From the IMG/VR virus record IMGVR_UViG_3300045988_163275, positions 43,752-107,751 of that record: DNA of 64,000 nucleotides; one strand, 5' to 3'. Shown piece after piece: positions 393 through 59,709 of the stretch; position 1 is the first letter of the stretch; the number at the start of each line of letters is the position of its first letter. This DNA comes from a virus. Taxonomy: Duplodnaviria; Heunggongvirae; Uroviricota; Caudoviricetes. The notes under the pieces are model-generated. The model made no database searches. It saw nothing but the letters and a program-made list of their open reading frames with translations, and was not told where the DNA came from. The position numbers and the translations under genes were made by a program.

Positions 393-410
393 TTAAACAA
401 GTTGTTTTCT
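393..410. promoter_or_regulatory. class-2 palindromic motif TTAAACAAGTTGTTTTCT
   Basis: About 20 bp upstream of start of left-edge gene; same motif upstream of cobT-like, dnaB-like and parA-like genes. Confidence 0.45.
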
Positions 411-582
411 TAATTGTTTAATTGTCTCAAATTCTATGATGATGTGAAGAGTTGCATTAAGGCGAAAAGACACGCAAAAGGAAAAATCAGGCATACCAGA
501 CATTTATTTAAAGTGGCATTCATAGCAGAATGTTCTCATTGCCGAAGTTCTATTCAGACGTCAGTCCCTAAGAGAGAGCAAA

Positions 583-1542
583 ATGTTTGGTAATCTTTTC
601 AAAACGGAAGAAACTAAGGCCCGGGAGGGCTTGGAGTCTCATTATCAGAAAGTCATGAGCTTCGTTGCTGAAAATGATCTACATGAAGCATGGGAAAAAA
701 CACGCAATATCATTTTTCGAAATATGGAAGTTAGAAGCTACATCACGCAAAACGGCGCGTTCGATCGTAACGATTTTTACTATAAGTCAGCCAAAGAGAA
801 GCTTATTCAAAGCGCCTTCACTTCATACCTACTCATAAAAGTTTTACCTCAGTTCTATGAAATGCATCTCACCACTTTGAAAAGAAAAGAAAAAACACTC
901 ACAACACAGGATGAATACGGGGTCTGGAACTTTGACAAGTGGTTTGATGAAGTAGACTACTTTTATGACAAGGTAGTAAAAGAGAAAGTTTACGATTGGA
1001 TCGAAGAGAACACAGGCCGGCTCAACAACCTTTGGTTGGCAGAGTCGGAGGACAAGAATGCCTGGGGGCGGCCAGTTTACTTTAAATTCCAGTTGCCTGA
1101 ACAATTTGATCGCTGCGCAATAAATCACATTATGACGGTGGTAGACAATACACCAGAACCTGAATTACCTGAGTACACTTCGCTACTGACCGGGCACGAA
1201 TATGAGCATTTTGTCGCTGGGGAGTTTATGAAGTATGGATCCGACACCCAAGTAACTAAGGGCAGCGGCGATCACGGTCTGGATATCCTTGTAACCTATA
1301 GAGAAGTTCGAATGGCTGTTCAGTGCAAACACTACCAGTCTAAAGTAGGCAACAAAGCTATTCAGGAAGCATTTTCCGCGAAACAGTTCTACGATTGCTC
1401 CCTCGCAATAGTAGTCAGCAACAGCGAGTTTACCCCTCACGCCAGACAAGCAGCCAAAAAACTGGACGTTTATCTGTATCACCATGAAGATATACACTTA
1501 ATAATAGACGCCATTAATAATTGGCTGGATGCGCCGGAGTGA
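583..1542 (+). CDS. Mrr-like restriction endonuclease domain protein (N-terminal unknown domain + C-terminal PD-(D/E)xK Mrr_cat-like)
   Basis: C-terminal segment GSGDHGLDILVTY...VQCKHYQSKVGNKAIQEAFSAKQFY...AIVVSNSEFT resembles Mrr catalytic domain; plus strand among minus-strand genes. Confidence 0.55.
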   Translation: MFGNLFKTEETKAREGLESHYQKVMSFVAENDLHEAWEKTRNIIFRNMEVRSYITQNGAFDRNDFYYKSAKEKLIQSAFTSYLLIKVLPQFYEMHLTTLKRKEKTLTTQDEYGVWNFDKWFDEVDYFYDKVVKEKVYDWIEENTGRLNNLWLAESEDKNAWGRPVYFKFQLPEQFDRCAINHIMTVVDNTPEPELPEYTSLLTGHEYEHFVAGEFMKYGSDTQVTKGSGDHGLDILVTYREVRMAVQCKHYQSKVGNKAIQEAFSAKQFYDCSLAIVVSNSEFTPHARQAAKKLDVYLYHHEDIHLIIDAINNWLDAPE

Positions 1543-1775
1543 AGATTGAGGGGCTAATGCCCCCCCCTATTCGTCGGTTAAAAGAACCCGAGGATGCCGC
1601 CCACTGGAACAATGAAAACTCCCACGACACGCGCAAGTGTCACTCCGGCATGAGACTGGAGATCGCCATCGTTCACAAGTTTCACCAGATTCATGATCCA
1701 GCCGCTAAACAAAAAAACGGTAAAGCCAACAATCATCAAGGTGAATTTCTGGAAGTTCCATTTCATACAATAGCC

Positions 1776-2369
1776 TCAGTCACAGCAGAAGGAAGATCCG
1801 GAGTCGCAGGTCGAGCTGGAATCGTGTCCATCAGCATCCCATCCAGAGAGACAGGAGGTCGTTCGGGCAGGGGGGTCATCTGCAAGGCCGTGGTGGCAGT
1901 GGAAGTAGTTGTGCCCGGCATCAAAAGGCTCTGACCGGCTGGTACGGTAACCGCTGCCAGAGTTGCCAAAATCACTCCGTAGGCCATTGGCTTCAGTCGA
2001 TTTCGTTGAAAATTTTCCATGAGAACTGTCCTTGTGTGTCCGGGTTTCACGCAAAACACGAGAAGCAACGCTATTACGCACCTTCTCCATGCCTACTGTC
2101 GTGCCCAGATTAGCTATGGCGGTAGCTTGCGCATTAATGCGCTTCTCCAGTTCAAACACTCGTTCTTCCAGTTCCGCAAGGCGTGCGGAAACACGACCAC
2201 TAAACAGCTCGGTCAGCACCAGGCGAATTGAACGGGGACGTTTATTGAAAGAAGTGAAAGACGTTTGACGGGCCATGTGGATTCCATTCAGTGTCAGAAA
2301 GAGTTGCGGCTGGCCAAGCCGCCTTTTGGCGTTCCATCCTGGAACCGTACCTAACCGGTACTTCGTCAT
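1776..2369 (-). CDS. hypothetical protein with coiled-coil segment; C-terminal half low complexity, possible frameshift
   Basis: ORF with ARLAELEERVFELEKRINAQATAIANL heptad-like region; a second frame (1763..2068) overlaps. Confidence 0.3.
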   Translation of the reverse strand: MTKYRLGTVPGWNAKRRLGQPQLFLTLNGIHMARQTSFTSFNKRPRSIRLVLTELFSGRVSARLAELEERVFELEKRINAQATAIANLGTTVGMEKVRNSVASRVLRETRTHKDSSHGKFSTKSTEANGLRSDFGNSGSGYRTSRSEPFDAGHNYFHCHHGLADDPPARTTSCLSGWDADGHDSSSTCDSGSSFCCD

Positions 2370-2426
2370 CCTGACGATTTATAAGATACCTGATTTATTA
2401 TAGTAGGTAAATACTTACTTATCTTT

Positions 2427-12147: not shown

Positions 12148-12869
12148 TCCATTAGTTTCTGTTCAAGTGTCTTCTCCGGCTCGCGAGTTGGCGGCTTCGG
12201 AATGTCGTTAACTACGTGAATGCCATCGTTGATCAGAACGCCTGCAGCAATATCTGCATCAATCATGCTCTGGCCGATGAAATGCCGCATGATGTCAATA
12301 AGTTGGCACGCAGCCTTTTCATTCGCGTTGAATACGTGGGGGAGGAGAACTTCAATAATCGCTACTTCACATCCCTTCTCGTAAAAGCAGAGTTTCGCCC
12401 GCTTTGAAATTGGCGCGTGCCGGTCATAGTCAACAGAGAAGCTGGCGAAGGCAGCACCCGGCATTGCAACGTGATCCGCGCGTGCGTTAGCGTGTCGAAT
12501 CAGATTAGTGAATGCGGTGCTGATGTGCGTCTCCATTGCATTGAAGAGTGCATTTTCTTGGATGTTCAGCGTTCCGGTTTCAGGAATCACAACGAACCCC
12601 GGCCCAGAATGTGGGAGATATCCACCTTCCGTAAATGGATTAATAAGGATCGGCGCAGTGCTTCCTGACGGCAGATTAGCCAAGCTCGGCATCAAAGGAG
12701 TCGATGACAATAGATTGGTTAATACCGAGAACTGGTTGTCGCTGATGTTTACGTTTTTCCACAAAAGTGCAGGCGGAGTTACTTTTGCTGTATGGTTGTT
12801 TATCAGCTTTATAGACTGCATCACGGCAAACATCTGCAAAAACTGCGTGCGGCTCAAGTTAAACGACAT
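12123..12869 (-). CDS. hypothetical protein
   Basis: 248-aa ORF immediately downstream of sbcC-like gene. Confidence 0.45.
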   Translation of the reverse strand: MSFNLSRTQFLQMFAVMQSIKLINNHTAKVTPPALLWKNVNISDNQFSVLTNLLSSTPLMPSLANLPSGSTAPILINPFTEGGYLPHSGPGFVVIPETGTLNIQENALFNAMETHISTAFTNLIRHANARADHVAMPGAAFASFSVDYDRHAPISKRAKLCFYEKGCEVAIIEVLLPHVFNANEKAACQLIDIMRHFIGQSMIDADIAAGVLINDGIHVVNDIPKPPTREPEKTLEQKLMECPTWATW

Positions 12870-20047: not shown

Positions 20048-20223
20048 GCCACGACTCCTTTGAAAACGCCTAATGCTGAGTCGAAGACCAGTACTACGGC
20101 CAGCGCATTGATCATCACATCATTAACAGGCGCCAGCGCTTTACGGATTGCCTCTGTGAAGATGCAGTCGAGCACAAAGGCTATCGAGATAATAAGTAAC
20201 GTAATATCTAATAAAATTTTCAT
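20044..20223 (-). CDS. small hydrophobic membrane protein (59 aa), not in ORF track
   Basis: Translation MKILLDITLLIISIAFVLDCIFTEAIRKALAPVNDVMINALAVVLVFDSALGVFKGVVA; stop overlaps next start (ATGA). Confidence 0.3.
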   Translation of the reverse strand: MKILLDITLLIISIAFVLDCIFTEAIRKALAPVNDVMINALAVVLVFDSALGVFKGVVA

Positions 20224-20262
20224 GATAGGTAAATGCTAACTTATATATTTTTGCTGTTAATA

Positions 20263-24359: not shown

Positions 24360-24362
24360 TCT

Positions 24363-25049: not shown

Positions 25050-25122
25050 AGAATAAACAATTTCAATCAGTTAAATAGTGCCACATGCTTTTTATGCAAG
25101 GCATCACGCAAAAGGTGAACAC

Positions 25123-39300: not shown

Positions 39301-39905
39301 TTCAGTGCGCTCGCCACTTTCATCGCCCGGACGTTAATCTGGTCGTAGAATGGGGTAGGGTGCGGATAAACCACGCTGTAGAAGTTATCGCGACCGCCAG
39401 CTGTGACCAGCGTACCGATAATTTTTGCGAAGTCCCGGCGCTGGAATACACTGCCAATGTCGGACGTCAGCAGGATGATGTTGCCTTTGGCATATGCGGC
39501 TGCCAGCTGCTCAAGCGCCAGACGCGGGACAAAGTAGAATTGCTCGCGCTTGTTCGCTAAGGTCATCAGTTCGCACACGTCGCGATAACCTTGTTCATTC
39601 TTTATCAGTGCCGTGAAGCAGTAGCTGCGATCACGAACTAATGATTCCATACATCTTCCTGACTCTTTCGCCAAGCGAGCGCGGTGCTCGTATGTCGGAT
39701 CGTCGACAACATTCAGCTTAACGCCACAAATTACCGACATGTCGTCGCCAGCGGCACGTTGCAGAGGGATTACACTGGCAATATTCATGCTGTCGGCGGA
39801 AATGACAGCGGTGTAGCCAGCGTCTCTCGCGATTTTCACCGCGTTTTCTGCTTTTAGAGCTGACTCTCCCAGGGAGAAGTCAGTTCTGACCATCAGAGCC
39901 TTCAT
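36399..39905 (-). CDS. dnaE: DNA polymerase III alpha subunit-like replicative polymerase (DnaE family)
   Basis: PHP-like N-terminus, GPGRGSSAGSLVAWCIGITNVDPIRHGLLFERFINPER palm motif, 1168 aa. Confidence 0.9.
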   Translation of the reverse strand: MKALMVRTDFSLGESALKAENAVKIARDAGYTAVISADSMNIASVIPLQRAAGDDMSVICGVKLNVVDDPTYEHRARLAKESGRCMESLVRDRSYCFTALIKNEQGYRDVCELMTLANKREQFYFVPRLALEQLAAAYAKGNIILLTSDIGSVFQRRDFAKIIGTLVTAGGRDNFYSVVYPHPTPFYDQINVRAMKVASALKIEPVAFYPAYYEAIDDADIKDIAHMVTNNIKIDQPHRLRIPHQRDNAVNGRRHLLEALKAFSVRMGVPVTAAMASTTQDTIIEACTWRWHELPPALPKMADDEPATLLKLAVAGLRKRLTTKEFGYTPPASEHRVYVERLKYEMDTLTRLGFCGYFLMVRDLMNHSRETGIPVGPGRGSSAGSLVAWCIGITNVDPIRHGLLFERFINPERLDLPDADLDFSQARRHEVIEYLNERYGEDYVAGIPNFTYLGAASALRDTARIYGVDAADMAVSKEFKNLEDDSLSLEELREQLASLDKYATKNPEAFKAACKLQSLMRGFGRHAAGMIVAGVPLVERTPVELRGNARCIAFDKRYCEAMGLIKLDVLGLATLDLLDSAKRYIKESTGEDINLDAIPLDDRKVLDGFAAGYTQGVFQLESGPMRKLLKDLGGGIEPMSFKTVVATTALFRPGPIQSGMLDDYVSVAKGFMAPHSIHPRLEEVTRETNGVLLYQEQIMQSSRVLAGFSMAEADALRSAIGKKNMDKMKAIGSDFVERAQAGWVTLSLKNGGTVEVHKHAKLDCSDGKRRSYSEAISDGIDYVEIVSEQEGLSKEKAQEIWDAFEKFGGYAFNKSHSVAYSLISYQSMWLKTHYPAEFFAAALTILGEDKHQGLVKDALTYGIRVLPPDVNVSSNRIEIRTLEDGSQVLYAPFSAVKGCSENGCQAIMRAREKVGGKFESLEQFEEAVEKRACNSRVRESLQRVGAFASIESGSLPATDPERLRDQAELMGNLVIDAVKASRPFEMNPKRSAEVNALMTRMAAEMGLGDDLIRPSIGIKPKIMVILDNANGNDGRTGYFMENGYDDFKAKLLTAGDLRMGDLYVTGVCKKVKDKEKDYTKDEIGQFTDFMREEINLVRPTYVLTCGSRATSLFNNKSKPSDLVGRKEYLPELDATVFYGFNPNILYFRPEEGERLEAILTDIAETINK

Positions 39906-40085
39906 GTGCTTTTACCTTTCTGGTTTTCTTGATTTTATCATTGGGGAAGCCAACGAACTTCCCATACATCGAAATCGCAACCTCTTTGGCTGACTGGTGG
40001 CACTCGGGTCTATCCGGACATGCCAAACAAGCACTGCCAGTTTCAGACGCTGCGATAAGAGAGCCGAAACATCCTTTACGCACGA

Positions 40086-41321
40086 TTAACCAAAGATCTT
40101 CTGAACCACTTCACGCGCTGCCTGTGCAGACGTGGATGGAAGTTTATTGATAAACGACTTTTCGATGCCGGCAGAGAAATCACCGCGCATCATTCCGATT
40201 TTGGCGGACAGCAGCAGCTCACGAGGCCCGATTGGCTGGCTAATCTGATGCTTTTCATAACCTTCACGGATAAGATTCGCGAACTTCACCATCTTCTCGG
40301 CGTATTCGCGGATGACGCCTGCTTCAGCCAGCATGTTGACTTCTGCCTTCGTACTCATGTACTTCACGTTTGAAACAATGCCAAAACGCGAGAAGTTCGC
40401 TGCGTTCTGGATGTTTGTGCCTTGATAGAGACCTGTTTCGTCGCCAGAGCCGTTAGTGTTGCCAGTGCCAATGAAGGCAAAGCGTTTATGCGGGGTGATG
40501 CGGCGCCAGTCCGCAGTTGCCTCTTTGATGATCAGCGGCTCTCCTTCAAGAACTGGCTGATACACACCCAGAATCTGCGGGAACGCGAAGTCATATTCAT
40601 CAGCGAGGTAAACCCAACCATTTTTCATCGCCAGCGCTAGTAAACCCGGTTCGAAATAGGTGGAACCATCGCGAGCGAGGATCTGGCCTGTAACGTGCGC
40701 TTCCTCCATAGACGCCGTATGCTGGGCGCGGATCAGTGGTCGATTTAGCAGGGCACATAGCTGCGTAGGAAGAGAAGATTTACCGGTTCCTGCATGGCCC
40801 CAGAGATAACCCGGGATTCCGATTTCCAGCATCATAAAGATGTCTTTGATCAGGTCGAAGTCGCCATACACATAGTTTTTCTTCGCTTCCGGTACGAACT
40901 CCGGATAGGGCGTGTTGACGTTGACTGTCACCTGTAGTGGCTTTCCGCGTGGCGTTCCCAGCTCTTTGATCGTTACGCCAAGCAGCTCGTGCGCGGCCAC
41001 CAGTTCGGTCTTGTATTCGACCGTTCCTGCGTAGCCCGGATGTGCGCTAATCTCCGCTACTTTTCCTTCGCCTGAATGCTTTTCGGCACGCTTCTCATTG
41101 AGTTTGGCCAGTGCCGTGCGAGAGATCGTTGGTTCATCTGGAAACGCAGAGGTGTACATCTTCACCACTTCGTCCACGTCCAGACCCTTCGCAGACTCAG
41201 GAATATTCTCGCAACGGCCCATAGAGATATGGGATTTCAGGTAATGAAAGGATTTGCCACACCACTTGCAGACGATGGCTTCCGGCAAATGTTCTTCTTG
41301 CTGTAGTGCAGTAGCGGTCAT
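40086..41321 (-). CDS. AAA+ ATPase, MoxR/CobS-like
   Basis: Walker A LWGHAGTGKSSL, Walker B VYLADEYD. Confidence 0.7.
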   Translation of the reverse strand: MTATALQQEEHLPEAIVCKWCGKSFHYLKSHISMGRCENIPESAKGLDVDEVVKMYTSAFPDEPTISRTALAKLNEKRAEKHSGEGKVAEISAHPGYAGTVEYKTELVAAHELLGVTIKELGTPRGKPLQVTVNVNTPYPEFVPEAKKNYVYGDFDLIKDIFMMLEIGIPGYLWGHAGTGKSSLPTQLCALLNRPLIRAQHTASMEEAHVTGQILARDGSTYFEPGLLALAMKNGWVYLADEYDFAFPQILGVYQPVLEGEPLIIKEATADWRRITPHKRFAFIGTGNTNGSGDETGLYQGTNIQNAANFSRFGIVSNVKYMSTKAEVNMLAEAGVIREYAEKMVKFANLIREGYEKHQISQPIGPRELLLSAKIGMMRGDFSAGIEKSFINKLPSTSAQAAREVVQKIFG

Positions 41322-41416
41322 GTTTTTTCCTTACTGTTTGTCGTTTGTGGGGTATATCTTATAGAAATATATTAGGCTGTATAGTAAGTAGTTACTTATT
41401 TTTAAGGGTAAAGCTA

Positions 41417-43648
41417 TTACCAAAGAATGATACGAGATAACTCAGTGACGACTGACGGCCCTAACTCTTCAACACTGTTAACCAGTGCGTAATTTTTGTA
41501 GTAACGCCGTGGTTCGTCGGTCAGAATGCCGATAGCCATCAGTTCGATGTCGCTCAAGGTCTCAATTTCTTTGGTGACGGTTCGTAAATGCTGATGGAAT
41601 CCACTACCTGTAGCACATGGCTCCCCATCACTCATAACCAGCATGATCTTTTTGTCCTCCATTCGCCCTGCAAACAGGGTAGCCAGTTGCGCGACACTCT
41701 CACCATCGACGTTATTGAGCAGGGGGAACGTCTCACATACGCATCCCATGCGAGCACGGATCTCTGGAGAGTTTGCTTTCTCATTCCAGTTTTTGATAAT
41801 GGGCAGCATGAGCGCCTCGAAGCGTGTAAACCCGCGCTTCGACCTGGTTTCATAATCTGGGCTACCGAACGTGGTAAAGCCGGTGATGATGTTGGGGACA
41901 TTGATACGATCTAAAGCATCCGCAATGGTATAGGCACTGGCTAGGGCCAGTTGAATCTTCACGCCATCCATTGAGCCGGACAAGTCGATGACCTGCTGGA
42001 CACACGCATTCACCGCTCTATGGTCTTCCTTCTTGCGGAACACTCGGTCGTCGTTCATTGCCAGACGATACAGGCTCGCGCCATGTATCCGCCCACGCCT
42101 CTGACCAGGTATAAACTGAACTCGGTTGCGGCTGGCGATGGCCCGCTCCAGGTCTTTGGCCAGCGTCGAAGAAACGCCTGCAGACAGATGTTTTTCGATT
42201 TTCAGTTCAAAGAGTTTTCTGCCTTCTGGCACCATACGGTAGCGGTCGACTGGTGAGTGCATTGGTATTGCACCGAACGTCTTTCTGGTGCGCTTCACAT
42301 GCTCTTCGGCTCCATCAATCAACCCGATAAAGTCGTATGATCGATCGTATGGCCGATAATCAGAAGGTGAGACGCTCATAAGCTCTTTGCTGATGGTGGC
42401 CGACAGTGCGTCTTCGGTCATTTCACCGATTCCGTCTTCCATCTCGTCGAGCGCCTTTAGCGCCTCCTCCAGAGTCATTTCATCCGGCGCAGGAACAAAG
42501 CCAGACTCACTGTCTTTGGGCACTTCCGCACCATCTTTATTTTTTTTGCCTTCGACGTCTTCTTCTTCAGTTTCCCCACGATCAGTATCGGAGTCCTCAC
42601 CGCCATCACCATCGGTGTCAGAGTCACTTGATTTCATGCCGATAGCATCGGATTCTGGGGTGTCTCCTGACTCTTCGTGGCCTGCTTCTGTATATTTACT
42701 TTCTGTATCACTAATATCTTTAACGTGTGTAGGTAAGTCCTTATCTAACGAATCAGGCAAATCGGAATCCCCAGAATCTTCCTCTTCTGATGCATCATCT
42801 TCTCGTTCTTCCTTGTCATCGCCTTCGCCTTTGGCAGGCTTAGATGCAGAGTCACCATGAGATGGCTCGTCACCTGATTCTGGCGTTTCCTCGGACTCGT
42901 CTTTGCTCTCCGACGGATTTCTGGCAGATGATTTAAGTTCTGGTAATTTGCCCTCTGGCTTGTCTTTCATATCCTGCATGATTTGGGCTATAGCAGCAGC
43001 GACCTTCACGCAATCCTCAGTGTTCGACATATTGCGAACGGCCACGTCTATACCATGCTCCTTTAGTAAGGCTACCGGCCTCTCGATAAGGCGCCAGTGT
43101 TCTTCCATAAAATCGATGAAGGGGCTTTGTCCATCCCAGGCGCGGACGACCGGGCAAAGGAAGAATTTCAAAAACAATTCACGCTGGTCTCCGTGACAGG
43201 CTAAAACCGCTTCTGGTACTTTATTCCTGAAGTATTTGTCGATAACCAGACTCTGTGTTGCAAGTAAATTACGCCGGGTTCCGTTAAAGACCTGCCCCAT
43301 TCTGCGTTCAATAAAAACGTCTTCCAGCGCATTCCAAAGCCCCGTAGACGGAGCCTTTCCTCTTTCGCGCATCTGCATTGCGACTTTCGGTTCAGTAAAG
43401 AGAATATGGGCCACCTCATGGTCGAGAAAACCACGCACTGCGTTCATGAGGGTTGGCGACGCGTCGTCCGGTATAGATGGGATGTTTACCAGCACTGGTT
43501 CGCCGCGCCGGTTATAGCGGACATATGCTTCATTGCCTCGTTCTGCAACAGGTATCTGTTTACCTGAAAGCATCGCTACAACTCGTTTTACACAGTCGCG
43601 AAAATCCTGCACCTCTTTCAGTACAGCTTTGGTGGTTTTTTTGGACAT
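41417..43648 (-). CDS. von Willebrand factor A domain protein (CobT-like partner of the AAA+ ATPase), with long acidic central region
   Basis: C-terminal MIDAS motif VIDLSGSMDG; acidic Asp/Glu/Ser-rich linker; start placed at MSKKTTKAV ATG 43646-43648 with AAGGGA RBS. Confidence 0.65.
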   Translation of the reverse strand: MSKKTTKAVLKEVQDFRDCVKRVVAMLSGKQIPVAERGNEAYVRYNRRGEPVLVNIPSIPDDASPTLMNAVRGFLDHEVAHILFTEPKVAMQMRERGKAPSTGLWNALEDVFIERRMGQVFNGTRRNLLATQSLVIDKYFRNKVPEAVLACHGDQRELFLKFFLCPVVRAWDGQSPFIDFMEEHWRLIERPVALLKEHGIDVAVRNMSNTEDCVKVAAAIAQIMQDMKDKPEGKLPELKSSARNPSESKDESEETPESGDEPSHGDSASKPAKGEGDDKEEREDDASEEEDSGDSDLPDSLDKDLPTHVKDISDTESKYTEAGHEESGDTPESDAIGMKSSDSDTDGDGGEDSDTDRGETEEEDVEGKKNKDGAEVPKDSESGFVPAPDEMTLEEALKALDEMEDGIGEMTEDALSATISKELMSVSPSDYRPYDRSYDFIGLIDGAEEHVKRTRKTFGAIPMHSPVDRYRMVPEGRKLFELKIEKHLSAGVSSTLAKDLERAIASRNRVQFIPGQRRGRIHGASLYRLAMNDDRVFRKKEDHRAVNACVQQVIDLSGSMDGVKIQLALASAYTIADALDRINVPNIITGFTTFGSPDYETRSKRGFTRFEALMLPIIKNWNEKANSPEIRARMGCVCETFPLLNNVDGESVAQLATLFAGRMEDKKIMLVMSDGEPCATGSGFHQHLRTVTKEIETLSDIELMAIGILTDEPRRYYKNYALVNSVEELGPSVVTELSRIILW

Positions 43649-43655: not shown

Positions 43656-43673
43656 CCCTTGTTGTTAAAACAA
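43656..43673. promoter_or_regulatory. class-2 palindromic motif upstream of VWA/CobT-like gene
   Basis: ttaaaacaatttgttttct immediately 5' of RBS. Confidence 0.45.
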
Positions 43674-43760
43674 TTTGTTTTCTGATGTGCGTAATTTATC
43701 ACTGTACGAACAGGCATCTAATCTGTTCGTACAGGCGCTAGAGAGGATGGGAGGGGGGTG

Positions 43761-43973
43761 TTAAATTGTGCGGACGGCTACTGAACCGCAGCCGGTATTG
43801 ATGAGAGTGAAGCACTTGCCCTTTAGCTCAAAGATGTATGCGGTTGCGTCTTTCATGCCAAGTAACAAAGACTTTGTTGGCAGTTCAGTGAGTATGGCTG
43901 CTGCCCCGTCAGCGTCAATTGAAACCGTATGTCCGACCTTAAGGGCGATCAAATTAGAAGTTATTTTTTTCAT
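43761..43973 (-). CDS. hypothetical small protein
   Basis: 70-aa ORF. Confidence 0.3.
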   Translation of the reverse strand: MKKITSNLIALKVGHTVSIDADGAAAILTELPTKSLLLGMKDATAYIFELKGKCFTLINTGCGSVAVRTI

Positions 43974-44229
43974 TTCATATCATCCAACTGAACACGTAAA
44001 TGCCTTGCAATACTACTACCTATTGTATCAATACGGAATACTTATATATCAAATACAACTTAGTTTTAAGTTCTTAAATGAGTTGTTTTTTAGATAGTTG
44101 TCTATTAATGAAGCCTTTTGCGGTCAATAACTCTACGAAAAAAAATAGATAAGTCTTTACAACACTAACCTTTGATGTAATATCAGTAAGCACTTACCAT
44201 ATAAAATCAAAACACGCAGGTTGATAATT

Positions 44230-44619
44230 ATGGCTACCAACGAAATAACAGAAGCTAAAGTAGGTCGCTATGCTGCTTACATTGACGCTTTAATCGCGAT
44301 TTCTCCGAAAAGCCAGGCGACCATCGCGAAAGAAGCAGGCTATAAAAATCCTAACAATCTTTCACTTATCAAGAGCGGCAAAATCCCGCTTCCGATCGAC
44401 AAGGTCAGAGCGTTGGCTAAAGCATTGGATGCCGATTCGGTCCGATTGATGCTAATGGTGCTGGAAGAGCGTCATCCAGAGCTGTTAGCGTTTTTTCGCG
44501 ACGAAGGCACAGCCCCTCTGACTAAAGATGAAAAACTAGTTCTGGAAGCCTTCCGTCGACGTTTCGGTGACCAACGTGGTGCGTCGGAGCGGGTTGTTGA
44601 GGCAATCAAGTCGCTATGA
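44230..44619 (+). CDS. HTH DNA-binding protein (XRE-like)
   Basis: SQATIAKEAGYKNPNNLSLIKSG helix-turn-helix pattern; divergent from integrase gene. Confidence 0.5.
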   Translation: MATNEITEAKVGRYAAYIDALIAISPKSQATIAKEAGYKNPNNLSLIKSGKIPLPIDKVRALAKALDADSVRLMLMVLEERHPELLAFFRDEGTAPLTKDEKLVLEAFRRRFGDQRGASERVVEAIKSL

Positions 44620-45717
44620 GAAATTTACACGGATTAGCTCAGTAGCGAGTCGATCTCCCTTGAACTTATGATCTATCTCCTCTAAATCCTGTTTCTCTAC
44701 GATTGATGCGATGTACGCCGAAAAACTGTTTAAGGCGTCTCGCATCTCGTCTATATAATCGTGTCGATCGTATACTCGATCTATCCCCTCAAGACTGTGG
44801 TTCATAATTTTGCGGGATACCTCCTGACTTATGCCTAACGCGGGGAAGTAACTACGCGCAGTACGACGCAAATCTCGGGGGGTAAATGGCTCAAGCTCCA
44901 TCAACTCTGGACGTTCTAAAATCCTTCTCAACGCCTGTGATATGGCCACCTTAGACATTGGCACATCCTCACCCTGTTTCTTGTTTGAAGGAACAAGCCA
45001 CTGGCTGCCTTTTCCGTATTTGATCAGCTCCTCAACACATTTGCGCATTAGCGGGCTTAATGGTAACGAGTGCTGGCGAGCCGATTTATTCCTCGTTCCT
45101 TGATTCCATAAATTATATTCGAGGTTGAATTCTGATCTTTTAGCTCGGAGCACTTCATCTGGTCGTCTGGCCGCTACAAGGCATAATCTGGCCGCCCACT
45201 TTGTACCCTCACATACGTTGAAGTAGTCCCATACATTCCAAAAGACCCAGACCTCTGCGTCGGTCAGTTTGCGCTCGCGCGGCGTGGGCTTCGCGCCACC
45301 GGCTACTCTGTTAAGCGACATATCGTTCAATGGGGATGTATCAATTAAGCCCTGAAATGCACACCAACTGAGAAACTGCTTCATCAGCGAGAACACACGT
45401 CTGCCCTGGACGATCTTACCTTCCAGTATCAGTGGGTTCACCAGCTGGTTGACCAAGACCCTACTTATATCACTTACCTTTACATCAGAGATATGCGGCA
45501 TTACATGTATCAAAACACAATGAACGGCTATTTCAGGTCGACGCCTCGTTATCAGTAAAGATAAGCGAGTGAATAACATGAAGGCAGAAGAAAACGACAT
45601 GTCTCCGTCGAATTTGGCGGTCGACACTGCCGACAAACCGGAAGCGCGTTCGAGGTACTCGATGGCTTCCCGAGAGGTATTTTCTGCTGCGCGTGCTTTA
45701 TCAAAGGTGTTTTTCAT
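44614..45717 (-). CDS. tyrosine recombinase / integrase-like protein (N-terminus atypical)
   Basis: C-terminal catalytic region FTPRDLRRTARSYF...NHS...RVYDRHDY; first about 70 aa do not resemble an integrase arm domain. Confidence 0.6.
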   Translation of the reverse strand: MKNTFDKARAAENTSREAIEYLERASGLSAVSTAKFDGDMSFSSAFMLFTRLSLLITRRRPEIAVHCVLIHVMPHISDVKVSDISRVLVNQLVNPLILEGKIVQGRRVFSLMKQFLSWCAFQGLIDTSPLNDMSLNRVAGGAKPTPRERKLTDAEVWVFWNVWDYFNVCEGTKWAARLCLVAARRPDEVLRAKRSEFNLEYNLWNQGTRNKSARQHSLPLSPLMRKCVEELIKYGKGSQWLVPSNKKQGEDVPMSKVAISQALRRILERPELMELEPFTPRDLRRTARSYFPALGISQEVSRKIMNHSLEGIDRVYDRHDYIDEMRDALNSFSAYIASIVEKQDLEEIDHKFKGDRLATELIRVNFS

Positions 45718-47992: not shown

Positions 47993-48805
47993 TCACGGCA
48001 GTTTTGCTCTAATTTCGAGTAATTTCTGTGCCGTTATGCTGATTTCATACGCCAAATCTTGTGTTTGGTTAATGATTCCGTAATAGCGCTCAACCTGATC
48101 AGGATAAAAACGTCTGATATGGGGGATATCGATATAATCATAATACCCAAGCCCTCCAGCAGAATGTTCTCTGAACAGCGCCCAAAAGTTGTTCACTTTC
48201 CCGACCAACTCCATACGGATTGTTTCTAAAACAACATCATTGAAGCTGTAAAAGGGGTTATGGGCAATATTATCAAATGCGTAGAGAGGGTCGGTAATGT
48301 CGGTGCTAACTTTTGCCCGGAACTGTTCGCTCTTCAGAATTTGGAGGTAGTTGTAATTAAAAATATCAGTAATGGCTTTTAAAACACCGACATCTCTTTC
48401 TGAGTAATTGTTCTGACTCACCTGGTGCGTCATCTGAAGCAGAAGAGATTGTTGAGTTTCGGCCAGCTGCTTCCAGTTTTTCAATTGCTCAACGGAATAG
48501 ATAGTGTAGTCAGAGTCAATGAGTGCGCCATGTGAACGACACATCCATATACCGTTATCAATCGAGCTTCGCTGTTCTGGGGTCAAGCTAGGATCATATC
48601 TCGGTCCACCCGGCGCTGCTGCTGTAATATGTGCCGCGATACCATTATTAATCCTGCCGTTTGTATCACTGCTATCTGGGCCGACTGTTACCTGGTTGCA
48701 TCCAAGAAAAGAGCACTTCCAGCCTACGCGTTCGGCTAGTGTTCGCTTCACCGATGGAGAAAAATCATCTCTGTTACTCACGTTTACCTCGCTGTGTTTA
48801 AACAA
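47993..48805 (-). CDS. HNH nuclease domain protein (N-terminal HNH, C-terminal unknown)
   Basis: CSFLGC...AHITAAAPGGPRYDPSLTPEQRSSIDNGIWMCRSHGALID HNH-like pattern. Confidence 0.45.
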   Translation of the reverse strand: MFKHSEVNVSNRDDFSPSVKRTLAERVGWKCSFLGCNQVTVGPDSSDTNGRINNGIAAHITAAAPGGPRYDPSLTPEQRSSIDNGIWMCRSHGALIDSDYTIYSVEQLKNWKQLAETQQSLLLQMTHQVSQNNYSERDVGVLKAITDIFNYNYLQILKSEQFRAKVSTDITDPLYAFDNIAHNPFYSFNDVVLETIRMELVGKVNNFWALFREHSAGGLGYYDYIDIPHIRRFYPDQVERYYGIINQTQDLAYEISITAQKLLEIRAKLP

Positions 48806-49677: not shown

Positions 49678-49752
49678 TGGCGATGGTGGGTGGACTCGAA
49701 CCACCGACCAGTTGATTAACAGTCAACCGCTCTACCACTGAGCTACACCATC
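49678..49752 (-). tRNA. tRNA-Asn (anticodon GTT), CCA encoded
   Basis: Cloverleaf by hand: acceptor GATGGTG/CACCATC, D-stem GCTC/GAGC, anticodon stem GTTGA/TCAAC with loop CTGTTAA, T-arm GGTGG TTCGAGT CCACC, discriminator G then CCA. Confidence 0.85.
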
Positions 49753-50806: not shown

Positions 50807-51326
50807 TTTCGCACTCCCGTCTCGTGAACAACCCGATACACACGCTTACCGACACGAAGTGTTTTGGTTTTCAGTTCCTGCTGGACCAGGGCGCGGCAGA
50901 TTGCGAGGCCGAGACCCACGCCACCAGTGAATGATAAAATGATGTATGGAATCATCAGTATGCCCCCGCCTCAGTCAATTGCTGCAACAACAAATAACCT
51001 TTTTCAGTCAGTTGATAGTTCTCAATACATCCCTTTGGAGAAACGTTGGCGACAAGATTCATGCGCTCCAGTTTGGCTCTGGTCTTCGGCTTCCAGTTGG
51101 CATAGAACTCCTTCCACTTGCTAATTTCACGCAGGGTTTCCTTCTCTCGTTTACTTAACATGATCATCCTTAATCTCCTTCAGTGTGTCCGTGATATCTA
51201 CTATGCGATAAATACGACCTCGCCTTTGCATGACACCGGCTTTTACGTAATCGTGGATACAGCTGGACATAACCAGACTTCCGATAACAATGCCGACGAC
51301 TAAAAATACAAACATCCAGCCGAGCA

Positions 51327-54133: not shown

Positions 54134-55318
54134 TTATACAAGAGCTTTAATGCCGAGTACCTTGCTTTGTAGCTCCAACTGTCTGGAGTACGGTTTGGCA
54201 CGATAATAGGCTTTGAGGATCTGCTCTGGTGTCGCGTCGCCGGGGTCGAGACCTTCCTCGCCCAGACAGGCCACTTTGACATTCAGTCCTATGCTGGTGA
54301 GACGTTTGGCCGCCGACATGGTGTTGCGGATCGCTTGCTTCTCGCTATCCCACATCATGATGACGTTGCGTAATCCACGCGCCTTGAGCGTCAGGAACGC
54401 GCCCAACTGATCTTCAGCGTCCTCATTCATATTTCCGGACAAGTGCATCCCGAACGTGCCAATTGGCTCCACGTAATCCCGCAGCGTCTCTTCGTCGAAG
54501 ATGGCACGCTTCACGCCCATTACGTCAAATGCCCCTTCACACACAACGACCGTTTGTTTTCCGACTGCGTTGTGGCCGTTGTAGAGAAACTTACCCGACG
54601 CCGGCAACTGCATGGGGAAGAGATAACGGCGTTCTGCTGCACCGGTAATGTCACGCCCCTGGAAGGTCTTCATCACGCCATCCAGATCGTAAACCGGTAT
54701 CAGGATGCGCATATCAAACACCTGCCCTTTGACCTGGTCTGTGTACGGATCGACGTATGCGTGCTTGCCTTCGACGCAGTAACGCAGATCAAAGTATTTG
54801 GCCAGCTCCGGGGAAATATGGCGCTCCACCAGATAATCAGGAAGACGACCGTCAATGGGGAGTTCGTAATGGCGCGGGAGAGCTACTGGCCCTTCGAGTT
54901 CAACCTTGCTGGCCAGCACGATCTCTTCCTTCTTCGGCGCCCAACCTTGTGAGATCAGCGCGTTCTGGACGTACTCTTCAAAATCGCGACGGGATTTGCC
55001 GCTGTAGTGCTTGAGGAAGACCAGCTTATTGAACTGAATCTCTTCGGGATGATCACCAGCAAAGCATTTGCCGACGCCATTGGTCAGGTTGAAATAAACC
55101 TTCCAGTTTGAGCTGCCGCATACCGGACACTCTTTAATGTTGACCTCTCGTCCGCGAGTACTGACTCCACCACGACGGTAGATGATCCCTTCCATATCGA
55201 GCCATTGCTCAAAATCCAGCTCGGTCAGTAATTCTTTCAAGTCGCTCACGTTCTTACCCCTGTTTTTTGCAGGTAATATCTTGATAAGCCTCGGTATTTG
55301 AATACCATAAAGGCTCAT
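54134..55318 (-). CDS. dnaG: DNA primase (zinc-binding + TOPRIM)
   Basis: Zn-binding CPVCGSSNW...CFAGDH and TOPRIM-like VVVCEGAFDVMG; start placed at ATG 55316-55318. Confidence 0.7.
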   Translation of the reverse strand: MSLYGIQIPRLIKILPAKNRGKNVSDLKELLTELDFEQWLDMEGIIYRRGGVSTRGREVNIKECPVCGSSNWKVYFNLTNGVGKCFAGDHPEEIQFNKLVFLKHYSGKSRRDFEEYVQNALISQGWAPKKEEIVLASKVELEGPVALPRHYELPIDGRLPDYLVERHISPELAKYFDLRYCVEGKHAYVDPYTDQVKGQVFDMRILIPVYDLDGVMKTFQGRDITGAAERRYLFPMQLPASGKFLYNGHNAVGKQTVVVCEGAFDVMGVKRAIFDEETLRDYVEPIGTFGMHLSGNMNEDAEDQLGAFLTLKARGLRNVIMMWDSEKQAIRNTMSAAKRLTSIGLNVKVACLGEEGLDPGDATPEQILKAYYRAKPYSRQLELQSKVLGIKALV

Positions 55319-55405
55319 GTGTTTTTTCTTTTGTGGTTTTGGCAAAAGAGAAATTTGTTCTCTTCTGGAGACAGGCGTGGAGAGTGTTTCCCCACGCCTT
55401 CTTTT

Positions 55406-56746
55406 TTAGAGGACGTCCATAATGCGTTCGATGAATCGCATTTGTTCGAGGTTCTGCTTAACGCGGATGCTTACGCCGCCTTTCTGGTTACGTGAACCAG
55501 CGAAGTAAAGACGCGCTTCGCCTTTCGCTTCTTCTTCTTCCGTTTTGTTGATAGTGATAACGAGGTCAGCGATACGCACCTTCTCGATGTTGTCCGCTGC
55601 GTGCATCATTGTAGCCACCTCAGAAGCGCCACCTTCTCTGTTAGTCTGCGATGCCGTGATGCCGGCAACGTTGTGTTTGTCGTACAGCGCACGCAGGTCA
55701 GTGTAGATGCTGCGAATGTTAGCGCGGTCGTCGCGGAGGTCGTAGCTGGCACGCATCAGGTCAGCGTAGTCGACCACAACCATATCGGGGACCATACCGT
55801 TGGCTTTCATGCTGCCCAACATACGGTCCAGATCTGCGGGCGACATGCTTCCGGAGGGTCGTTCAACAATCCACAAACTTCCCACGCCTTTCGTCGCACC
55901 CAGCTCTGCCAGTTTGCGATGGACGTCATCGCGACGTTCCACCAGCCTGGACATTTCGGTCTCAGACAGACGGGCGTCAAAGCGATCTGACAGAATGGAG
56001 GTGTGAACTTCCAGCGACAGATACAGGACGTTGTAACCGGCAAGCGTGGCGTTGATGGAAAACTCCCCCATCGCCGTCGATTTACCAGACTTAGCGAAGC
56101 CCATAAATAGCACCATTTCACGCTTTGCCCAGCCTTTCTGGTAAAGCAGCTTGTCGAGCAGCGGGAGGCCGGTAGTGATGCTGTTTGGCACGTAATCGTC
56201 GGACGCTTCGTACTCACGGGCCTTGTAACGCTCCGCTGATTCTGCGAAGTAATCGTAAATGCCGGTCGCTTCGTTAGAGCCGATTTGCTGGACCTTAGCC
56301 ATGATTGCCATCGCGCCCTGGAAATCGCCCTTCTCTTTCATCTCAGCCGCTTTAATCAGCGCGTCGTCGAACGCTACGCTTTTAGCAAATGTCGCGACCT
56401 GGTCGACCATGTACGCCGTATCTGACAGCTTCTCAGCGAGAATGCGCTTAAACGCCTCAACAACGTCAGGGAACAGCTCTTCGCGGATCGTCTTATCGCG
56501 TTTGGCGCGTTTGAGCATGTCGAGGATGGCTGATGATGATGGTGCGCTCTTATACATTCTGTAGTAGCCCGACACCATGTTAACCAGAATGGAGTTAGCC
56601 GCATTAGAGAACTGGTTTGGGGCAACCAGATCGCCTGCGCGAGTCAGAAACTCATGGTCGCGACAGAAGTAGGCAGCGAGTCTATTCTGGAAGTCGTCGT
56701 CGAACTCTTCAGACAACCCTCGTCCTGTGTGGCAAAGTTCGGTCAT
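55406..56746 (-). CDS. dnaB: replicative DNA helicase (DnaB-like)
   Basis: Walker A GFAKSGKST, Walker B VVVDYADLM, arginine-finger region typical of DnaB/gp41 helicases. Confidence 0.8.
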   Translation of the reverse strand: MTELCHTGRGLSEEFDDDFQNRLAAYFCRDHEFLTRAGDLVAPNQFSNAANSILVNMVSGYYRMYKSAPSSSAILDMLKRAKRDKTIREELFPDVVEAFKRILAEKLSDTAYMVDQVATFAKSVAFDDALIKAAEMKEKGDFQGAMAIMAKVQQIGSNEATGIYDYFAESAERYKAREYEASDDYVPNSITTGLPLLDKLLYQKGWAKREMVLFMGFAKSGKSTAMGEFSINATLAGYNVLYLSLEVHTSILSDRFDARLSETEMSRLVERRDDVHRKLAELGATKGVGSLWIVERPSGSMSPADLDRMLGSMKANGMVPDMVVVDYADLMRASYDLRDDRANIRSIYTDLRALYDKHNVAGITASQTNREGGASEVATMMHAADNIEKVRIADLVITINKTEEEEAKGEARLYFAGSRNQKGGVSIRVKQNLEQMRFIERIMDVL

Positions 56747-56764
56747 GTGCTTTCCTTTGATACT

Positions 56765-56782
56765 TAAACAAATTGTTTTCTA
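56765..56782. promoter_or_regulatory. class-2 palindromic motif upstream of dnaB-like gene
   Basis: ttaaacaaattgttttct about 20 bp upstream of ATG. Confidence 0.45.
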
Positions 56783-57532: not shown

Positions 57533-57544
57533 ATGATTCCCTTT

Positions 57545-57814: not shown

Positions 57815-58582
57815 ATGGACGATTTATCGGTATACGCGAGATCATTGGATAAGGCTAAATACTATGTTTACTGTCTCTATGATACAGAAGACAAGATGAA
57901 AAGACCGTTTTACATAGGAAAAGGCAAATCGACTCGTTGTCTCGATCACATCAAGTATCCCGATGACTCTCCCAAATCCATGCGGATCAAAGAACTTTTG
58001 GCTAATAAAAAATTAGGCATAGATATTCTTCGTCATGGTATGGATGAAACCACAGCCAAACTTGTTGAGGCGACATGCATCGACCTTATGGGGGTCGGAG
58101 AGCTTACGAATAAGGTACGAGGAAGTGGTTCCATGATGGGCAGAATATCACTGGACGCCTACCATCACTTAGTGCTGCAAGAGGAATCTGAAATTGCTCC
58201 TGAGCACGCCGGTCTTGCCTTCCTGCTAAACAGCACCTACAAGTCAGGAATGTCCGCTCTGGCATTATATGAAGCTACGCGTGGCGTATGGGCAAAGGTT
58301 CCAAGAGACGAGAATCTCAAATATGCCTACGCTACATATGGGGGCCTGATAATGGAAGTTTATCAGATTGAATGCTGGGTCAAAGCCGGTTCTCAGCAGT
58401 ACTTTACAAGGGATATAGCTCTTGGCCCCGACACAAAACGTTATGAATTTGTTGGCAGAATAGCCGATGAGCATATTAGAAAACTGTATGTAGGCAAATT
58501 AATCAAGAAGCCACCAAGCTACGGCAGCCCTTTTGTGAAGGTTGGGGTGGTTAGGAATGAACATAGTGTTAGCGCGGCATAA
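57815..58582 (+). CDS. GIY-YIG nuclease domain protein
   Basis: YVYCLYD...PFYIGKGKSTRCLDH GIY-YIG motif; isolated plus-strand gene. Confidence 0.55.
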   Translation: MDDLSVYARSLDKAKYYVYCLYDTEDKMKRPFYIGKGKSTRCLDHIKYPDDSPKSMRIKELLANKKLGIDILRHGMDETTAKLVEATCIDLMGVGELTNKVRGSGSMMGRISLDAYHHLVLQEESEIAPEHAGLAFLLNSTYKSGMSALALYEATRGVWAKVPRDENLKYAYATYGGLIMEVYQIECWVKAGSQQYFTRDIALGPDTKRYEFVGRIADEHIRKLYVGKLIKKPPSYGSPFVKVGVVRNEHSVSAA

Positions 58583-58634
58583 AGCTGACACTGTACTTAT
58601 GCATTGGCGCAATGTACGCGCCAATGCATAATTT

Positions 58635-58994
58635 TTAACCTTTCTTCATCAACTCTCGTTTGATTTCGTCGGTACGCATCGTGACGTCGGCAGCAGTGAT
58701 CGCCTCGTTCAGTTTCACGATGTCTTCGATTTCCTGCGGTGACTTCTCTGCCAGATGGAAAATGGCTGCACGAATCACATCAGAACGGGTGAACTTCTCA
58801 AAACGAGGGATAAACTTCATCATCTCCAACAGTTCGAAGTACTCGTCTTCCAGCGACATTGTGCGGCTTTTAATCTTCTCTTTGCCACGAGTCGGACGCC
58901 CCTGCGGTCTGACTGGCTGGCGCAGTGGAGTGCTGCTTTTGGCCGGTTCTTTAGGCTCATTGCGCTTTGCAAGGTCTCCCATTCTCATGGACAT
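58635..58994 (-). CDS. small partition partner protein (ParG/ParB-like, putative centromere binding)
   Basis: 119-aa basic N-terminus, immediately downstream of parA-like gene with overlapping stop/start. Confidence 0.45.
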   Translation of the reverse strand: MSMRMGDLAKRNEPKEPAKSSTPLRQPVRPQGRPTRGKEKIKSRTMSLEDEYFELLEMMKFIPRFEKFTRSDVIRAAIFHLAEKSPQEIEDIVKLNEAITAADVTMRTDEIKRELMKKG

Positions 58995-59659
58995 TATTCT
59001 TCCTCCAGACTCAAGATGTAATCTACAAACTCTTCGAACTCGGCTTCTGCCTTCTTATCGCGTTCAGCGCCAGTCATTTCAAAGATAGAACGACCTGCCT
59101 CTTCCGCATCGTCATAAACGTTACGGTTGTACAGGTTAACCGGCGCAGCCTCGATGCCGAAAGTTTCGACAATTTCCTTCGCGGCCAGAATACGTGATAC
59201 CTGGGAAGGCAATGACGGACACTGGTTTATTACCGCGCGGATCTTAACTTTCTCGTTCACATTGCGAACGTTGTCGATAATCGGGTCGATATCACGCAGA
59301 GATTTCAAATCACGACGTTTAGGGCGCAGCGGGATGATGATTACATCAGCCATAAGCATCGCCAGACGCTGAATTTCGGAGTCAAAGCCACCAGCATCTA
59401 CCACTACATAATCAGTTCGCCCCTGAAGCGATTTAAGATGTTTGACGATGTCGTCCTGCACATAAGCGAACGGGATCAGTTCAAGATCTTCGTTCTGGCG
59501 ACGGTCTTCACACCAGCTGGTCGTGGTGCGCTGGATATCGATATCGGTGACGTGAACCTTCTTTTTCTTTTTAACTTTGAGACATACCGCAATTTGCTGG
59601 GCAACGGTAGATTTGCCTGGGCCGCCTTTTGTGCCGCCAACCACAATGATCTTGGTCAT
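58994..59659 (-). CDS. parA: ParA/ParF-type partition ATPase
   Basis: Deviant Walker A GGTKGGPGKST, Walker B DYVVVDAGG. Confidence 0.8.
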   Translation of the reverse strand: MTKIIVVGGTKGGPGKSTVAQQIAVCLKVKKKKKVHVTDIDIQRTTTSWCEDRRQNEDLELIPFAYVQDDIVKHLKSLQGRTDYVVVDAGGFDSEIQRLAMLMADVIIIPLRPKRRDLKSLRDIDPIIDNVRNVNEKVKIRAVINQCPSLPSQVSRILAAKEIVETFGIEAAPVNLYNRNVYDDAEEAGRSIFEMTGAERDKKAEAEFEEFVDYILSLEEE

Positions 59660-59692
59660 TGGTGAGTTTCCTTTGCGTGAATTATTGTCGTA

Positions 59693-59709
59693 TGAAACAA
59701 CTTGTTTTC
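59693..59709. promoter_or_regulatory. class-2 palindromic motif upstream of parA-like gene
   Basis: aaacaacttgttttct about 35 bp upstream of ATG. Confidence 0.45.

Follow-up and report, generated by a model that had tools for sequence, protein, structure and literature searches.

The four copies of a short palindrome in a 64,000-nucleotide (nt) stretch of a virus of the class Caudoviricetes (IMG/VR record IMGVR_UViG_3300045988_163275, positions 43,752 to 107,751; the whole stretch is hereafter called the window) appear to belong to an operator class that serves a whole regulon in SSU5-like phage-plasmids. The palindrome is quite likely the operator of a regulator that is encoded by the element itself. 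The explanation that we favor as a whole, a regulon-wide operator with a protein of the FljA family as the leading candidate for its regulator, is put forward with somewhat less than even confidence. The window makes up ~60% of one Escherichia coli SSU5-like phage-plasmid. Its closest matches are several E. coli plasmids of ~107 to 188 kb (99% identity), including CP122497, the E. coli relative used below; it is 92% identical to Salmonella phage SSU5, with lower identities to the E. coli phages Cyrano and CMS-2020a (~85 to 88%) and to Klebsiella phage-plasmids (~81%).

The core AAACAANTTGTTT (palindrome AAACAAnTTGTTT) occurs exactly four times in the window (395-407, 43668-43680, 56766-56778, and 59695-59707), compared to 0.28 occurrences expected from dinucleotide-preserving shuffles (n = 100), none of which reached four. 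In an unbiased enumeration of the palindromes of the window, this motif was the most recurrent one with 6-bp arms. Extended to the minus-strand 18-mer AGAAAACAANTTGTTTAA, the copies lie at 393-410 (0 mismatches), 43666-43683 (1 mismatch), 56764-56781 (0 mismatches), and 59693-59710 (1 mismatch). All have the same polarity and read AGAAAACAAnTTGTTTAA on the minus strand, and the central base of the palindrome is different in each of them. Furthermore, all four are intergenic, 18, 17, 17, and 33 nt 5' of minus-strand ATGs, with a Shine-Dalgarno sequence between motif and ATG in every case. The copies and the genes behind them are as follows.

393-410, minus strand: motif copy 1, AGAAAACAACTTGTTTAA, 18 nt 5' of the ATG of the left-edge gene.
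1-374, minus strand: left-edge gene, homolog of SSU5_094 (190 amino acids, function unknown), cut by the window edge.
421-448, minus strand: sigma-70-like promoter with extended -10, TTCACA-16-TGaGACAAT, from a promoter scan.
43666-43683, minus strand: motif copy 2, AGAAAACAAATTGTTTTA, 17 nt 5' of the CobT-like ATG (43648).
36399-43648, minus strand: operon behind copy 2, with CobT-like protein (41417-43648), CobS-like AAA ATPase (40086-41321), a small open reading frame (ORF), and DNA polymerase III alpha (DnaE, 36399-39905).
56764-56781, minus strand: motif copy 3, AGAAAACAATTTGTTTAA, 17 nt 5' of the dnaB-like ATG, in a ~60-nt gap behind a 241-amino-acid gene.
54134-56746, minus strand: genes behind copy 3, DnaB-like helicase (55406-56746) and primase (54134-55345).
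59693-59710, minus strand: motif copy 4, AGAAAACAAGTTGTTTCA, 33 nt 5' of the parA ATG.
58635-59659, minus strand: type Ib-like partition operon behind copy 4, with a short ParA (58994-59659; MipZ/ParA/CbiA domains) and a 119-amino-acid partner (58635-58994).

The original prediction had described four near-identical copies next to the ribosome-binding sites of these genes, and this description stands: the copies are real and nonrandom, and the distances to the ATGs are 17 to 33 nt. A similar frequency within genes, which would have spoken against the prediction, was not seen, as all four exact copies lie outside coding regions. Three of its coordinates were right, and the second, 43656-43673, was ~10 bp too low. 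At copy 1, 10 nt separate the end of the -10 box from the motif, so that the motif would start at about +4; the same spacing is seen in the cassette promoters of SSU5. At copy 3, a -10-like TAGTAT abuts the motif. Copies 2 to 4 have -10-like hexamers by eye, and the consensus promoter scan calls none of these three. A fifth match with three mismatches (44074-44091) is taken as chance; it has been lost from a close relative whose adjacent repressor is ~98% identical. Directly 5' of the -10-like TGATAAAT of cobT there is also an unrelated structure:

43702-43734, no strand assigned: perfect hairpin with 12-bp arms, CTGTACGAACAG-9-CTGTTCGTACAG.

In Klebsiella pJN2-26, the arms of this hairpin read CTGCGCGAA...TTCGCGCAG, a compensatory change that keeps the structure. 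The inverted repeat has no T-run and is therefore not a standard terminator.

The motif is not confined to the window. A genome-wide pattern search, which had been proposed along with the original prediction, found the motif family throughout SSU5-like phage-plasmids, with 16 to 20 sites per complete relative and 7 in Yersinia pestis pMT1. For these counts, complete relatives were rebuilt and core matches were scored at ≤1 mismatch:

SSU5: 20 core matches, 11 exact.
E. coli CP122497: 16 core matches, 10 exact.
Klebsiella pJN2-26: 17 core matches, 11 exact.
Klebsiella oxytoca pCAV1015-111 (DnaB 69% identical): 20 core matches, 12 exact.
Y. pestis pMT1 (mosaic): 7 core matches, 3 exact.

Besides parA, dnaB, and cobT, the sites stand before the small-terminase leader, nrdB, a Rha-like gene, a DNA methylase gene, and ~10 small genes of unknown function that lie in a variable region outside the window. 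The recurrent unit consists of a -10 box (often extended, TGnGATAAT), ~10 nt (aAaCCAAcA), AGAAAACAAnTTGTTTAA, 0 to 20 nt with the ribosome-binding site, and the ATG. An ORF starts within 45 nt in the AGAAAAC orientation at 55 of 84 core matches (median, 17 nt) and in the other orientation only at 9. Second copies in reverse orientation, directly behind terminator hairpins, account for about a quarter of all copies. In line with selection on the motif, the half-sites are tightly coupled and the flanks drift: in SSU5, AGAAAACAA is followed by TTGTTT (≤1 mismatch) in 13 of its 15 occurrences (0.7 occurrences of the 9-mer expected). In 42 distinct dnaB-upstream sequences out of 79 viral contigs, the 12 core positions are conserved at 0.99, compared to 0.72 for the 30 nt upstream and 0.85 for the 14 nt downstream, which include the Shine-Dalgarno sequence; at the center, 20 of these sequences have T, 14 have A, and 8 have C. 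The motif is identical across elements of Escherichia, Salmonella, Klebsiella, Enterobacter, and Yersinia, and it is unchanged even in lineages with much diverged proteins. A scan of IMG/VR with the exact pattern returned mostly single chance matches in AT-rich contigs; the contigs with multiple matches had a size of 90 to 112 kb, as expected of SSU5-like elements. Outside this group, a phage-plasmid of Moellerella (DnaB 63% identical to the main group) has no exact copy, nor does the motif occur in a Pectobacterium relative of the Moellerella element or in the 23.7 kb that were covered of an Acinetobacter relative (pLUH6011-1).

The small-terminase leader (SSU5 record 53-130; pJN2-26 38625-38700) has one or two motif copies, two tandem ones in SSU5 and E. 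coli, and then a GC hairpin, GAGCGCaaggaTGCGCTC, with a T-rich run. Judged by its sequence, this arrangement is suggestive of an attenuator that precedes the late operon.

Since the sites are real, nonrandom, and located at promoters and leaders, they are most simply explained by a single trans-acting factor that controls all of them. To this extent the co-regulation proposed originally is supported. Its restriction to maintenance and replication genes is not: the motif is found before 16 to 20 transcription units per genome, which makes it a regulon-wide operator. By working principle, the closest analogs appear to be the KorB network of plasmid RK2 and the C1 network of phage P1. The operators of KorB on the IncP plasmid RK2 are likewise 13-bp palindromes with a nonconserved central base, and a dozen or more of them are dispersed over one replicon at replication, partition, and other promoters, tying maintenance into one regulon. 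However, there is no sequence similarity (TTTAGCSGCTAAA), the KorB sites are at -40 or far away and not between -10 and the ribosome-binding site, and KorB, a member of the ParB family, is itself a partition protein, whereas the partition partner of the SSU5-like elements does not track the motif.

This last point bears on the question of which protein binds the sites. The original prediction had named the small ParG-like protein, the 119-amino-acid partner of ParA, and such a protein could repress its own par operon and, like KorB or omega, also serve as a global repressor, with the dispersed sites perhaps serving as centromeres as in N15. Indeed, there is a palindrome at the parA promoter, and a palindrome fits a dimeric DNA binder. 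The partner has a disordered basic N-terminal tail, the sequence KSRTMSL, and helices at 48-59 and 70-84, a pattern resembling ribbon-helix-helix proteins, and a single-sequence AlphaFold2 model fits a strand-helix-helix arrangement. It is conserved in all enterobacterial lineages, its putative DNA-contact strand is identical at 50% overall identity, and it is expressed in lysogens (~89 units). The type Ib systems ParG/parH of TP228 and omega of pSM19035 also combine a short ParA, a small partner, here with a sequence pattern resembling ribbon-helix-helix proteins, and a site at the parA promoter, and in N15 the sopC partition sites are likewise dispersed between phage genes. However, the Moellerella and Pectobacterium elements encode a homolog of the partner and yet have no motif, which is lacking even in front of their parA genes; in Moellerella, the homolog has an almost identical putative DNA-contact strand (KSRTVSMEDEY). 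pMT1, in turn, has no partner homolog and seven intact sites, an argument that is weak because pMT1 diverged recently. Type Ib operators are arrays of short repeats; here, a site 5' of a short parA and a small partner are present, but the palindrome 5' of parA is single, a repeat search of 58500-60100 gave no array containing the motif, and partner and motif do not co-occur. Moreover, no ribbon-helix-helix match to the partner was obtained in Pfam or PDB sequence searches, and the AlphaFold2 model is of low confidence (predicted local distance difference test [pLDDT] of 67). We therefore regard the partner as an improbable regulator. A remote ParG-like match on a 188-kb Klebsiella plasmid is a remnant disrupted by an insertion sequence and is uninformative.

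A repressor in the generic sense, the other regulator considered originally, is plausible; one candidate of this kind is disfavored:

44221-44619, plus strand: cI-like helix-turn-helix repressor, adjoining the integrase gene (44614-45717) and divergent from a 70-amino-acid gene (43761-43973).

An immunity repressor could bind the palindromes as C1 binds its dispersed operators in P1, also a plasmid-prophage, in which ~17 to 20 dispersed operators include one that controls ban, a gene for a DnaB-type helicase. The cI-like gene lies near the cobT site and is expressed in lysogens (~96 units). In the Acinetobacter lineage, a different palindrome, AGTCAGTnnnACTGACT, is located 5' of the homologous helix-turn-helix repressor gene and of hfq-dnaB, cobT, cobS, and orf23149 (pLUH6011-1); this arrangement suggests autoregulated immunity operators there. 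Against such a role at the motif studied here, SSU5 has no cI-like gene and yet ~20 sites, the switch region of the cI-like gene has no conserved motif copy, and the Moellerella and Acinetobacter lineages, which have no motif, nevertheless conserve the helix-turn-helix region. The P1 C1 operators differ as well, being asymmetric 17-mers read by the master immunity repressor, and in the SSU5-like elements the site-bearing parA operon is clearly expressed in lysogens. An operator of the lambda cI or P1 C1 type was thus rejected on the grounds of switch region, SSU5, and helix-turn-helix conservation, and the cI-like protein as binder of this motif has next to no credence.

A better candidate for the cI-like repressor is a second, more widespread and more numerous palindrome, TAGGTAAGTACTTACCTA (TAGGTA-N6-TACCTA), with 18 window matches at ≤2 mismatches compared to 0.8 expected:

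2404, 3599, 4657, 9500, 10775, 16207, 20193-20570, 42730, 47928, 50486, 54098, 57547, and 62293: TAGGTA 18-mers.

Most of these sites are just 5' of minus-strand gene starts, for example those of thymidylate synthase, methylase, RNase H, and the 241-amino-acid gene ahead of dnaB. There are 27 such palindromes in Moellerella and 23 in the Pectobacterium relative, and a variant, ATAAGTAnnnTACTTAT, occurs in K. oxytoca pCAV1015-111. Beyond this class, no palindrome replacing the motif was found in Pectobacterium or Moellerella. The TAGGTA palindrome is probably the motif that the original prediction counted as its first, and from the sequence it is a candidate operator of the cI-like repressor. 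The module of integrase, cI-like repressor, and 70-amino-acid gene (43761-45717) is present in the window, Cyrano, pMT1, and the Klebsiella, Moellerella, Pectobacterium, and Acinetobacter relatives and is missing from SSU5, consistent with SSU5 being a repressor-deletion derivative.

The palindrome could also be a classical transcriptional operator of some other dimeric protein of the element. Proteins that come into question are the ParB_N-domain proteins encoded 5' of the terminase genes (KorB-like), the Rha-like protein, the 160-amino-acid SSU5_117, and the following:

50955-51167, minus strand: 70-amino-acid protein, homolog of SSU5_046 ("putative transcriptional regulator" in Cyrano), found in three motif-bearing lineages and absent from Moellerella; no Pfam match, PHROG family of unknown function.

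A 13-bp palindrome with a free central base is the format of the KorB operator, the sites lie between -10 and about +20, and with the second copies ~50 bp upstream, the core promoter is flanked on both sides. Every lineage encodes two ParB_N proteins, and SSU5_046, 117, 068, 105, and 113 have the same presence/absence pattern as the motif. But the ParB_N pair is also encoded by the motif-less Moellerella and Pectobacterium plasmids, and none of these candidates has a demonstrated or predicted DNA-recognition domain here. On balance, a regulator from this set is rather unlikely.

It is also imaginable that no dedicated binder exists and that the motif is part of a promoter-leader cassette spread by duplication and recombination, acting as the start-site region, as an AT-rich UP-like element or terminator U-tract, or as an A/U-rich translational enhancer. 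Many sites do belong to a ~75-bp unit that recurs between small genes and consists of a terminator hairpin, a reverse copy, CCTTTTC, the -10 box, and a forward copy. In some reverse copies of the relatives, located directly behind terminator hairpins, TTGTTTT serves as the T-tract and would be the U-tract of the terminator. This is reminiscent of the promoter-early stem-loop cassettes of T4-type phages, repeated intergenic terminator-plus-promoter units that flank small genes in a variable region, and TTGTTTAA resembles part of the T7 gene 10 leader. The T4-type cassettes, however, are not defined by a strict palindromic operator, and a leader or enhancer gives no reason for the strict dyad symmetry, the tight coupling of the half-sites, and the free central base. 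At dnaB, parA, and cobT, the palindrome stands alone in otherwise unrelated flanks and is the only invariant part. The chance that the motif works without a binder is accordingly slim. An intrinsic terminator was not predicted at any of the four window copies, and a structured cis-regulatory RNA (riboswitch, leader, or thermometer) was rejected on the folding scores and uncompensated variants described below and on the lack of any Rfam family at the four sites.

The invariance of the motif across elements from five genera might point to a host factor common to Enterobacteriaceae and Yersinia. Moellerella and Pectobacterium have most of the enterobacterial global regulators, though, and their elements are without the motif. 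No E. coli operator is known to match, and a KdgR-type operator was discarded on its different half-site spacing. A host factor is very improbable.

The leading candidate for an element-encoded regulator is the FljA-like protein. Every motif-bearing lineage examined encodes a PF03614 "repressor of phase-1 flagellin" protein (E = 5e-95; SSU5_121, CYRAN_114, WP_112916377), whose gene lies ~40 kb away, outside the window. The protein is also present in pMT1 and in lineages in which it is only 33 to 58% identical (pCAV1015/pB-KP1118, Nissabacter-type, and E. wuhouensis-type), all with the identical motif. It is undetectable in Moellerella, and Acinetobacter is not represented among the plasmid records that carry it; both lineages are without the motif. 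In a six-frame phyletic screen, it was the sole annotated nucleic-acid-binding regulator found in three motif-bearing lineages and absent from Moellerella; the same pattern was seen for a few small proteins of unknown function, among them the products of SSU5_046, 117, 068, 105, and 113 already mentioned. In all, 831 plasmid records contain the FljA-like gene (Klebsiella, 341; Escherichia, 229; Enterobacter, 92; Yersinia, 62; Salmonella, 60; and others), with no Acinetobacter or Moellerella record named among them. Klebsiella is non-flagellate. With 341 plasmids of flagella-less Klebsiella carrying the gene, another target than flagellin is needed, which argues for targets on the element.

No solved structure related by sequence to the FljA-like protein was found. 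An AlphaFold2 model built from 22 diverse members (pLDDT 82; predicted template modeling score, 0.80) has two repeats of one helix plus five strands, and all 50 matches listed by Foldseek against the PDB were Hfq chains or Hfq complexes and fusions (target-normalized template modeling scores of 0.66 to 0.86). On the strength of this model, the protein has a predicted tandem Hfq-like fold. FljA itself is reported to bind the fliC leader and to block translation (PMC4122451, PMC2652032). Among flagellin leaders retrieved from ~100 species, the fliC leader of Salmonella and Citrobacter reads ...AACATCAAGTTGTAATTGATAAGGAAAAGATCATG; the CAAGTTGT within it is 19 nt before the AUG and adjoins the Shine-Dalgarno sequence, and the CAAnTTGT of the window copies is 21 to 22 nt before the AUG. 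By a post hoc estimate, a leader of 60 nt would contain a match of this kind at some position with a probability of ~0.003. The flagellin leader that is in an operon with a plasmid-borne fljA (on an FljA-encoding linear plasmid) is without the CAAGTTGT element.

In the model that we propose, one element-encoded regulator would bind the sites and hold down partition, DnaB/primase, CobT/CobS/DnaE, the terminase leader, and many small genes by occluding the transcription start, the early leader, or the adjacent ribosome-binding site. If the FljA-like protein is this regulator, it would bind the 5' leader just 5' of the Shine-Dalgarno sequence and repress translation, by analogy with FljA on fliC. 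That it is the regulator at the palindromes seems to us an attractive possibility, somewhat more likely to fail than to hold. A more far-reaching version, in which a tandem-Hfq-like FljA-family protein is a global, largely post-transcriptional repressor of ~20 units, comparable to RegA but based on an Sm fold, and Salmonella FljA with its fliC site CAAGUUGU is a domesticated copy of this system, is possible but doubtful.

Several observations weigh against the model. About a quarter of the core matches (20 of 84, ~24%) have no gene start nearby; these include the reverse-oriented second copies, which are at a constant distance of ~50 bp, center to center, 5' of the main copy. Only a few lineages are without the motif, and these belong to the more divergent ones. 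Since the motif never varies, just its presence or absence can be set against that of a protein, and true covariation is not seen. The Pectobacterium element, which has no motif, does encode a remote FljA-like ORF (28% identity; E = 1.5e-7). There is no motif copy upstream of the FljA-like gene itself. For a site in the leader RNA, it is adverse that the leaders fold no better than shuffles (z, -0.07 to +1.15; at most a marginal 5- to 6-bp hairpin is possible) and that the half-site variants TTGGTT, TTATTT, and AGATAAC have no compensating change. In favor of DNA are the strict dyad symmetry, the unconstrained central base, and the second copies at about -50, which flank the core promoter; indeed, a perfect palindrome with a free center is the signature of a dimer on double-stranded DNA and not of a single-stranded RNA site. 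To our knowledge, a Hfq-like fold is without precedent as a sequence-specific DNA binder. Finally, in mRNA of LF82 lysogens of Cyrano, the motif-bearing genes are expressed at ~50 (ParA), ~89 (partner), ~21 (DnaB), and ~8 (CobT) units at a background of ~5 to 9, with ~18 units for the FljA-like gene and ~96 for the cI-like repressor (PMC9928086, supplementary table). These approximately tenfold differences among motif-bearing operons show that the motif is not an all-or-none transcriptional switch.

For binding to the leader RNA speak the position relative to the ribosome-binding site, the FljA precedent, and the Hfq-like fold of the candidate. The geometry would fit a leader operator: the ATG follows after 17 to 18 nt at three of the copies and after 33 nt at the remaining one, and -10-like boxes precede the motif, although at dnaB the -10 box abuts it. 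If binding is to RNA, the closest analogs would be FljA on fliC and RegA of T4. The phage-plasmids share with the former a PF03614 protein on the element and the CAAGTTGT of the fliC leader, which has the core and the geometry of the phage-plasmid sites. In contrast, identity to flagellar FljA is only ~33 to 37%, FljA has one chromosomal target compared to ~20 candidate targets here, and the fliC site is not an extended 13-bp palindrome. RegA is likewise a phage-encoded protein that represses many phage mRNAs via A/U-rich translation-initiation sites, but its sites overlap the AUG, are poorly conserved, and have no dyad symmetry, and the protein is unrelated.

Small genes of the Hfq type are found directly 5' of dnaB in the motif-less lineages, exactly where the enterobacterial lineages have the palindrome:

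1774-2313 of Acinetobacter pLUH6011-1 (L212): 179-amino-acid protein with an Hfq domain in its C-terminal half.
48354-48575 of Pectobacterium Drgb1 (L332): 73-amino-acid protein annotated as Hfq.
12297-12527 of the Moellerella element (L323): similar 76-amino-acid protein, annotated as hypothetical.

Hfq-like proteins thus recur across the whole SSU5 supergroup. Homology of the Acinetobacter protein to the FljA-like protein was rejected (hhalign probability, 1.3%).

Elsewhere in the window, a 779-amino-acid ORF (30520-32859, minus strand) has a counterpart annotated as LAGLIDADG homing endonuclease in CP122497 and a ~358-amino-acid recombinase at its place in SSU5, which suggests an intein-containing recombinase. 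Three large plus-strand ORFs (21024-30218) adjoin it and may represent inserted cargo. CP122497 has an annotated type I restriction-modification system at another location. Rfam matches above the gathering score were IS009 (62403-62601, minus strand; 191 bits) and a tRNA (49681-49752, minus strand; 76 bits).

A dispersed operator class is a known kind of element; this member of it and its possible regulator appear to be new. In the literature, which we covered incompletely, we found no description of the motif or of a Hfq-like fold for FljA; a 2026 preprint on phage-plasmids deals with an unrelated family. SSU5-like phage-plasmids abound in Klebsiella, E. coli, Enterobacter, and Salmonella, with individual core genes matching ~800 to 930 plasmid records. 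The family takes in pHCM2 of Salmonella Typhi and much of Y. pestis pMT1, some members carry resistance genes, and their regulation is essentially unstudied. One invariant operator before the partition, helicase/primase, polymerase, and terminase units as well as accessory genes offers a handle on the switch between plasmid and phage life. If domestication did take place, it would also explain why a "flagellin repressor" is encoded on hundreds of plasmids of non-flagellate Klebsiella. Should the link to FljA hold, it would provide a fold and a general role for proteins that are known only for their part in flagellar phase variation and would indicate a phage-plasmid origin of the phase-variation system.

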